The position numbers and the translations under genes are program-made. The notes under the pieces are model-generated. The model saw only the letters and a program-made list of their open reading frames with translations. It was not told the DNA's origin and made no database searches. This document shows, piece after piece, positions 11,131 to 13,093 of a DNA stretch of 64,000 bases. Each line of letters opens with the position of its first letter. Positions within the stretch are counted from its first letter, which is position 1. Origin of the DNA: Octopus sinensis. Lineage: Eukaryota. The stretch covers positions 147,622,001-147,686,000 of the forward strand of contig NC_042998.1 in the NCBI RefSeq assembly GCF_006345805.1. Reading direction: 5' to 3'.

Positions 11131-13093
11131 GCTTCATTTCTTGCGAGCTTACGCATATCCTCAGCAGTCACAGCCCATGTTTCACTACCATGTAGCATGG
11201 CTGTACGTACACATGCATCATACAGTCTGCCTTTTACTCTGAGCGAGAGGCCTTTTGTCACCAGCAGGGGTAAGAGCTCTCTGAACTTTGCCCAGGCTAT
11301 TCTTACTCTAGCAGTTACACCTAGGTAGCGGAAGCTATCAACTACTTCTAGTTTTTCTCCCTGGAACGTGGTAGAAGTTAGTCTCTGCAGATTTTCAGTG
11401 TTTATTGCTCCTGAGCATCTGTCACAGACAAAAACTATTTTCCTAGTTAGCCTTCCTTTGACATTGCTGCACCTCTTATGTGTCCATAGCTTACACTTGG
11501 TGCACCTTATAGAGTTTCTACCTACACCTTTTTTACAGATCGAGCAGGGCCATCTACCTGAAGGCGTTTGTGATTGGTCTACCTTCCTACTTATTAGGAC
11601 TTTGGTTTTGGCTAGGTTGATTCTAAGGCCCTTCGATTTTAATCCTTGCTTCAACACCTGAAACTTCTCCTCCAGTTCTGATAGTGACTCAGCAATTAGA
11701 GCAAGGTCATCAGCATAGAGGAGCTCCCAGGGGCATTCTGTCTTGAATTCCTCCATTATTGCTTGGAGGACTATGATAAGTAGAAGGGGACTGAGGACTG
11801 AACCTTGGTGGACCCCAACCTCTACCCGGAATTCTTCACTGTACTCGTTGACAACCCTCACCTTACTAGCAGCGTCTCTACATGGCTCGCACAGCTCTCA
11901 CTAACCATTCATCTATCCCTAGTTTCCTCATTGACCACAAGATAAGGGATCGAGGGACCCTGTCAAAGGCTTTCTCCATGTCAACAAAAGCCAGGTACAG
12001 GGGCTTATCTTTGGCTAGGTATTTCTCCTGCAGCTGTCTTACCAGGAATATAGCATCAGTAGTACTTTTTCCCTGGCACGAACCCAAACTGCATCTCATC
12101 TAAGCTAACTCTCTCTCTAATTAGTTGGGCTATAACCCTCTCCATAACCTTCATTACCTGATCCAGCAGCTTGATACCCCTGTAGTTATTTGTATCTAGG
12201 ACATCACCTTTAACTTTGTAGCAGTTGACTATTATGCTGCTACACCAGTCATTGGGTATGACTCCTTCATGTATCACCTGGTTAACTATATGGGTGACTA
12301 GGCTATAGCCAACACTACCAGATATTTTGAGCATCTCTGCAGTAATTCCTGATGGGCCTGGGGCTTTCCCTGTTTTGATGCTTGTAATTGCCTTAACTAC
12401 TAAGGAACTGTCAACTCGGATTGCTGGTCCCTCTGTTGGGTCGACATTCGGCAGACTCTCTTTATCCCATTCATTTTCCTCATTCAGCAACCTTTCAGAG
12501 TGGCGTCTCCAAACCTCTCTCTTTGCATCCTCATTTAGCGCAAGTGAACCGTCATCCTTGAGAACACATTTCTCTCCTACCACGTCACGATTCTCTCTCA
12601 CACACTGTCTTGCAACACGAAATATCTCAAGTCTTTCATCCTCACGGCGCAGAACATTGGCAAATTTTTTCTTATCTGCTTCCCCTCTGGCTAAATACAC
12701 CTGCCTCTTAGCTTCCCTTCTGGCAGTCTGATACACTTCCCTGCAACCACCGTTCTTCCAGTCCTTCCAAGCCTGTTTCTTTTGTCTAATAGCCCTGTCA
12801 ACAATATTGTTCCACCACCACGTTATTTTGGGTCTTGAGGGGACTTTGCACCAGCCACAGATCTGGTCAGTGGCTTTCAGCAGGTTGTCCCTCAGAAGCG
12901 TCCAGTTGTCTTTTACCCCATGTGTAGTTATACCCCCTTCTATTTCGTCAAAGGCTTCAAGTAACATGTCTCTAAATCTCTGTCCATTCGCAGGATCTTT
13001 AAGCTTCCAGACCTTTCTTCTCCATGCTGGTCATCTTCTAGTCGTCCTCTTAGTCCTGATCCTAAAGTCACTAACTACCGGTCTATGTTGTGG

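Follow-up and report, generated by a model that had tools for sequence, protein, structure and literature searches.

Among described elements, RTE LINEs that lack a PHD finger, such as RTE-2_OV of octopus, are close in overall layout and resemble the family reported here in their single APE-RT ORF (about 1,040-1,100 aa), (GAT)n tail and dispersed, 5'-truncated copies; RTE-2_OV is given a C2H2 finger and no PHD domain in the available part of its description (PMC9115989). PHD fingers are likewise found in LINEs of the CR1/L2 type (Jockey group), where they were proposed as an aid to genome targeting (Metcalfe & Casane 2014, PMC4120745). The initial annotation of the present locus had named CR1/L2 ORF1 as the best known home of LINE PHDs, and the accessible text of that study agrees, with LINE PHDs placed either in ORF1 or, where they belong to ORF2, at its 5' end; the same text calls the structure of ORF2 highly constrained and reports, as of 2014, no functional study of any LINE PHD (PMC4120745). 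In the R2 element of Bombyx mori (R2Bm) an insertion between reverse transcriptase (RT) motifs 6 and 7, termed RT6a (residues 672-677), reads an upstream target motif, and nicking is blocked when RT6a is deleted (PMC10499050, in the part available). Three R2 structures place the 6a loop on the side of the target DNA, according to the accessible portions of the reports (PMC10499050, PMC12180492, PMC12222951).

The window analysed here is a stretch of 64,000 nucleotides of Octopus sinensis DNA, and a broken LINE copy on its minus strand spans about 13,500 to 10,020 (Table 1). The catalytic YADD, motif 6, a C4HC3 cluster and motif 7 share the one reading frame of the 256-aa open fragment, and the cluster follows the pattern W-P-C-x2-C-x10-C-x2-C-x2-W-x-H-x2-C-x14-C-x2-C, with all eight zinc ligands there. 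The exact, in-frame C4HC3 spacing between RT motifs that had been noted from the sequence was thus confirmed; over all six frames of the window there is a single instance of the pattern, with none in 30 local shuffles, on which ground a chance origin was rejected. Pfam assigned residues 19-194 of the 256-aa fragment to RVT_1 and, inside this match, residues 118-161 to PHD (PF00628) with an E value of 7.8e-5 and 23.1 bits, slightly below the cut-off of 24, which is exceeded in the intact relatives P0004 (27.4 bits) and P0093 (26.4 bits). Identity as a C1, RING or FYVE domain was rejected, as these scored below PHD in Pfam and the fold matches were mostly PHDs. The window copy itself is a dead, broken and non-functional insertion. 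Its endonuclease region holds a near-perfect inverted repeat of about 115 bp (13095-13208) with a deletion of about 400 bp alongside, and just upstream of the copy a 30-bp tandem repeat (13649-13951) produces a proline-rich open frame of 160 codons (13582-14064, minus strand). The 30-bp unit was absent from the 78 other family loci searched, and the repeat is therefore probably not part of the element.

Four further copies of the family are present in the window. The insert had been said to recur in these, and it was found in four of the four, but in none of them is it whole and in frame. The repetitive, SINE-like 3' UTR of the family is also present as many short copies across positions 2984-56049.

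Table 1 Positions of the LINE features in the window (strand "-" is the reverse strand, "." is unstranded)
Feature	Positions	Strand	Remarks
PHD finger, C4HC3	11415..11552	-	In frame within RT; aromatic residue two before the first Cys, Trp two before the His
RT motif 6 strand, immediately before the insert	11595..11627	-	Alignment to R2Bm 656-666
Variable linker preceding the PHD	11553..11594	-	By ungapped count from aligned motif 6, equals R2Bm RT6a position (residues 672-677)
Variable linker and hairpin strand following the PHD	11352..11414	-	
RT motif 7 (LEVVDSFRYLG)	11319..11351	-	Short in-frame deletion directly after it in the window copy
RT catalytic YADD	11706..11717	-	
256-aa open fragment of the broken ORF	11127..11897	-	RT motifs 4-7 and PHD, start of thumb
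Second ORF fragment, upstream, with the linker and the first RT motifs	12056..13030	-	Frameshift at its end
Endonuclease (APE) part of the window copy	13095..13457	-	Internal deletion and short inverted piece (13095-13156)
AT-rich insertion, about 260 bp	10871..11129	.	Splits the thumb coding region; window copy only
ORF end, 3' UTR and (GAT)n tail of the window copy	10021..10870	-	
Near full-length copy, young subfamily B	48726..52899	+	96.8% to natural copy L123; PHD about 51295-51431, frameshifted
Older fragment, ends within the PHD	14280..14917	+	PHD part 14865-14918 stops past the third Cys
Old decayed copy, degenerate PHD	27365..28173	-	PHD part 27950-28090, several ligands lost
5'-truncated, internally deleted copy	53914..54350	+	Partial PHD 53914-54036 without the first Cys and the last pair

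A DNA search of the octopus genome (G000) gave 2,562 first-look candidates, 40 of which were scored, and a single subfamily motif had 1,541 exact matches. Copies were sampled in three age classes with mean pairwise identities of 96.8% (subfamily A, 30 BLAST-ranked copies), 99.8% (subfamily B, 25 copies) and 78% (subfamily C, 25 copies), and all eight zinc ligands were kept in 29/30, 25/25 and 6/23 alignable copies, respectively. Nine of 38 wider subfamily-B loci have a frame of at least 1,000 codons that includes the PHD and is unbroken, and (GAT)n tails are present at the 3' end in subfamilies A and B. Matches to the subfamily-A motif clump at 74-82 Mb of contig C1, with about 40 of the first 100 listed, and the first 10 Mb hold none. 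The best RVT_1 matches in the genome (L151-L180) belong to another LINE group, lie almost only on unplaced contigs and may be non-host DNA.

Among homologous proteins, C4HC3 between motifs 6 and 7 was found in 119 of 120 long sequences (the best 120 of 163, the query having included the PHD), as an insert of about 60 aa at the same position throughout, octopus and catfish records included. The relative P0004 has a single ORF with an APE endonuclease and an RT, and P0093 carries two tandem PHDs in the same RT loop (residues 723 onward), a duplication seen in one lineage. Since the query of the first homolog search contained the PHD, an RT-only search was added, in which 85 of the top 150 matches lacked a PHD, 13 had the strict pattern, several more had spacing variants or partial forms, and the remainder did not cover the site. 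The distance from the pre-motif-6 helix to YLG was 43-48 residues in nearly all PHD-less relatives versus 105-114 in whole PHD-bearing rows. Named homolog records were few and comprised octopus (O. bimaculoides, O. vulgaris), the catfish Neoarius graeffei, a short nematode contig and bacterial-labelled entries, of which P0129, P0134, P0135 and P0137 carry a PHD-bearing LINE ORF and look like contamination. A catfish slc22a21 isoform gene model (P0008, XP_060771234.1) is largely a PHD-bearing LINE ORF, and some octopus fragments carry the automatic UniRef name "Zinc finger PHD-type domain-containing protein".

In an alignment of 106 sequences, seven of the zinc ligands were invariant and one was present in 105, and the Lys or Arg after the His, the stretch G-V-G-x-N-S-I and the Trp were near invariant. 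The mean top-residue frequency over these sequences was 0.67 in the PHD, 0.67-0.74 in the RT, 0.61 in the thumb, and 0.41 and 0.33 in the linkers. Between subfamilies, dN/dS was 0.16, 0.14 and 0.07 for the PHD, 0.05-0.16 for RT and thumb, and 0.17-0.65 for the linkers, the three comparisons sharing branches and hence not being independent; pN was below pS in the PHD (p 0.016 to 3e-6). The PHD is conserved as strongly as the RT and is under purifying selection between subfamilies. The initial annotation had regarded the insert as fixed in the family, its older members included, and had proposed dN/dS and a homolog survey as checks, and both bore it out, with low ratios and a widely retained insert.

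A quick RT-only tree, built on 79 rows (L028 and the 78 that remained of 190 after thinning by similarity), grouped the PHD rows, with 3 changes versus 16.3 in shuffles. A quick tree of 41 rows, unrooted and without named references, was built with thinned PHD rows after removal of a row with an internal deletion and of two outgroups on long branches; here 26 PHD rows and three PHD-less rows fell on one side of a branch with a support of 99, and a single PHD clade was not rejected (p-AU 0.48). Clean or partial losses were seen in P0316, nested among the PHD rows, and in P0294, P0298 and P0313 nearby. These sequence relationships would fit one ancient gain with either a few losses or PHD-less sisters, and the sister elements presumably resemble Rex3 and plant RTE. 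The donor of the PHD may have been either a host Pygo-like gene or CR1/L2 ORF1; an Atlas look-up of the PHD returned PHD and PHD_Pygo clusters with no taxa attached.

A natural frame of 779 aa (L028) was modelled with AlphaFold2 using 105 homologs. The RT and PHD model had a mean pLDDT of 89.3; its PHD blocks, which follow the motif-6 strand and precede the hairpin to motif 7, reached 91-95. The model matched L1 ORF2p with a Z score of 27.4 (rmsd 3.8, 535 aligned) and R2 proteins with Z scores of 18-22. When modelled alone, the insert had a pLDDT of 80 and matched the PHDs of Pygo, TAF3, ARID5 and BPTF, the top Foldseek and VIA rows being PHDs; the best fold match was Pygo, with modest scores (Z 5.3, rmsd 2.5, 50 aligned; Foldseek E 0.058), and the family profile found the Pygo PHD with an E value of 1.4e-6. 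The insert is predicted to be an independent, Pygo-like and zinc-binding PHD fold that hangs off an undisturbed palm, and the PHD fold first proposed from the spacing of the ligands, with Pfam and structure prediction suggested as checks, is upheld by this model and by the PF00628 match described above.

The alignment of the family profile to R2Bm runs up to residue 671 and RT6a begins at the next residue, and the PHD is therefore grafted into the same loop. By analogy, the PHD would face the target DNA as the RT6a loop of R2 does, although Wilkinson et al. called the 6a loop R2-specific and the RTE endonuclease is placed differently from that of R2, both of which count against the analogy. 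A role in integration is plausible from the position of the insert.

The surroundings of the copies were described by repeat-masked CpG o/e, in which random 4-kb loci were bimodal and values below 0.4 were taken as CpG-poor. Such values were found in 10/40 random loci, in 33/38 loci of the young subfamily B (p 3e-8) and in 25/40 motif-sampled loci of subfamily A (p 0.001), the comparison having been redone with motif-sampled copies since BLAST-ranked copies can favour undecayed loci. Two PHD-less RTE-like families of similar age were CpG-poor in 8/28 and 5/27 loci, with no difference from random (2 and 3 of 30 loci were dropped because of too little unmasked sequence). Subfamily A differed from both of these families (Fisher p 2.6e-4) with loci of 3 kb for the PHD-less sets versus 8 kb for A and B; with 8-kb loci 40/40 of the A copies were usable, and with 3-kb loci 17/30 were usable and 6/17 were CpG-poor, which did not differ from random (p 0.09). 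The A sample covers the first 118 Mb of one chromosome (one arm), all comparisons were made in one genome, and the compared families differ in endonuclease and age. A young CR1 family, the RT of which lacks a PHD and the visible ORF1 of which showed none either, was CpG-poor in 21/30 loci; since it is biased alike, the bias need not come from the PHD. A CR1-like family in the genome (L201-L209, L213-L242), very young with copies about 99.8% identical, lies in CpG-poor DNA. Given its youth, decay of subfamily B itself cannot account for its flanks. Octopus methylation lies in the bodies of broadly expressed genes, according to the part available of PMC9476566, and the CpG-poor DNA is for this reason probably made up of such gene bodies.

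Fixed upstream motifs are known from R2 (RUM) and from RTE (T-stretch) in the accessible part of PMC6007223, and a motif of this kind was rejected here, as 26 5' junctions showed only A+T richness. The repeat (TA)3 adjoined 12/37 3' and 10/26 5' junctions, with 8% and 3% in controls. PHD-less families also had (TA)n at some junctions (9/60 and 8/57), and the preference is therefore not credited to the PHD. Target-site duplications of at least 7 bp were present in 7/25 copies with both junctions, most of them within (TA)n runs. No single fixed target sequence was found among the copies, which are dispersed, with junctions only A+T-rich and (TA)n-enriched. Young B copies (L093-L130) are mostly without a clear target-site duplication and often beside (TA)n, and their (GAT)n tail merges into flanking AT.

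The aromatic residue two before the first Cys (Y in 40, W in 39, F in 15 and H in 8 of 106 sequences) and the Trp two before the His (104/106), to which the initial annotation had drawn attention, are kept family-wide, as are the Val and the small residue at the base of the Pygo pocket, so that the hydrophobic half of the K4me pocket is retained in the alignment. Together with the best profile and fold matches, which are H3K4me readers, these residues speak for H3K4me2/3 reading of the classical kind, by which the element would be tethered to promoters or enhancers in the way that the PHD of RAG2 tethers RAG. Such a reader is nevertheless improbable, because the acidic Pygo positions E349, D352, D355 and E360 carry D or E in only 1, 1, 0 and 3 of the 106 sequences, and mutation of E360 abolishes binding in Pygo (PMC2726290, in the part available). 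The location of copies in CpG-poor DNA further argues against targeting of unmethylated H3K4me3 promoters, which would be CpG-rich, and promoter reading of the classical kind, as first considered, is weakened on both counts. The Ser in place of Met that had been put forward as an argument against reading did not hold up, as Pygo has Ala at this position and still binds H3K4me (PMC2726290, same part). The insert had also been described as very basic, and the mean net charge of 105 PHDs is +6.6. Basic PHDs that bind DNA are known from BAZ1A (PMC5636791) and from BRPF2 and PHF6 (PMC6222470), in the text available of these papers, and the BAZ1A PHD is without the aromatic cage, whereas the LINE PHD keeps one. 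Net charge is weak evidence on the ligand, since the aligned part of the PHF13 PHD, the structure of which has been solved with H3K4me3, is likewise net basic. When a complex was predicted for the PHD, the unmodified tail of an H3 from G000 and two Zn, the score was 0.00, which is evidence neither way.

On balance, the PHD in the motif 6-7 loop is likely to be a target-chromatin contact module with a preference for active gene-body chromatin. The PHD would face the target DNA, its basic surface would grip DNA and its retained aromatic pocket may read methylated lysine; this contact would help the enzyme to engage, and hence to prefer, active gene-body chromatin, and would be the cause of the insertion bias, the CpG-poor DNA here probably corresponding to methylated gene bodies. 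Three PHD-less proteins lie within the same supported tree group, and that these relatives manage without the PHD counts against this account. A fuller version, in which a chromatin reader grafted into a DNA-facing 6a loop reads a gene-body mark (methyl-lysine and DNA) and thereby directs insertions, in their thousands, to genes that are active and methylated, is possible but doubtful. The PHD may instead act on the RNP side by binding RNA of the element, an RNA:cDNA hybrid, another ORF2 molecule or a protein of the host; as with CR1, CpG-poor sites would then be reached because their chromatin is open and transcribed, or through host factors. A basic surface suits RNA as much as DNA, these single-ORF elements have no other zinc-finger family above the cut-off in the Pfam scan of P0004, and the CR1 family, for which no PHD was detected, favours the same kind of site. 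This reading is nonetheless rather unlikely, as the two similarly aged RTE families of this genome that lack a PHD show no bias and the 6a loop of R2 is on the side of the target DNA. It is highly improbable that the insert is a passenger, captured in frame long ago and tolerated, which is retained just because the RT would suffer from an insert that does not fold. Folding alone could account for selection against the loss of zinc ligands, and the losses named above do exist, but non-ligand surface residues of the PHD are near invariant among homologs whose RTs are just 45-60% identical, and the insert is retained in nearly all of the best long homologs and duplicated in one lineage.

The insert is a real, old and selected PHD insertion within the RT of an RTE-like lineage, auto-annotated in UniRef and Pfam and not found described. 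No prior description of a PHD inside a LINE RT was found in the literature, although Repbase Reports, subscription papers or supplements could hold one, and the main text of two mollusc LINE surveys (PMC11203168, PMC10294476) does not contain "PHD" in the part available. The insert bears on the choice of chromatin by APE-type LINEs, as a reader domain is here present in the catalytic protein, at the target-reading loop of R2. The family lends itself to direct testing, since it has young natural copies, sister families without the PHD and a site bias that can be measured, and the result would bear on how an abundant octopus repeat fills genes and on retrotransposon engineering, for which RT6a has already been named as a retargeting handle in the accessible literature. 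If the fuller version is true, RT6a would be a general plug-in site for retargeting non-LTR retrotransposons.

Compared with known systems, the insert shares with the CR1/L2 PHDs the Pygo structures 2vpb and 3zpv among its best matches, as tabulated in the part available of PMC4120745, and differs in lying inside the polymerase palm of an RTE-like element. With the PHDs of Pygopus and PHF13 it has in common the C4HC3 fold, the Y/W-P-C start, the Val and small pocket-base residue and the Trp two before the His, whereas the acidic pocket residues of Pygo are replaced, its long loop 2 is missing and the charge is strongly positive. Chromovirus chromodomain integrases and RAG2 with its PHD are presumably comparable in that a reader domain is fused to a DNA-inserting or DNA-cutting machine and biases target choice, as proposed for the LINE PHD. 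They are different enzymes in which the reader is appended, whereas the LINE PHD is inserted within the RT domain. The RT6a of R2 (R2Bm, R2Tg, PlaMe) is also a motif 6-7 insertion and contacts the target DNA in R2, but it is a short loop by which a site-specific element with an RLE nuclease recognises a fixed motif in 28S, whereas the LINE PHD, at about 46 aa, is a folded domain, belongs to an APE element with dispersed copies and has no sequence likeness to RT6a.
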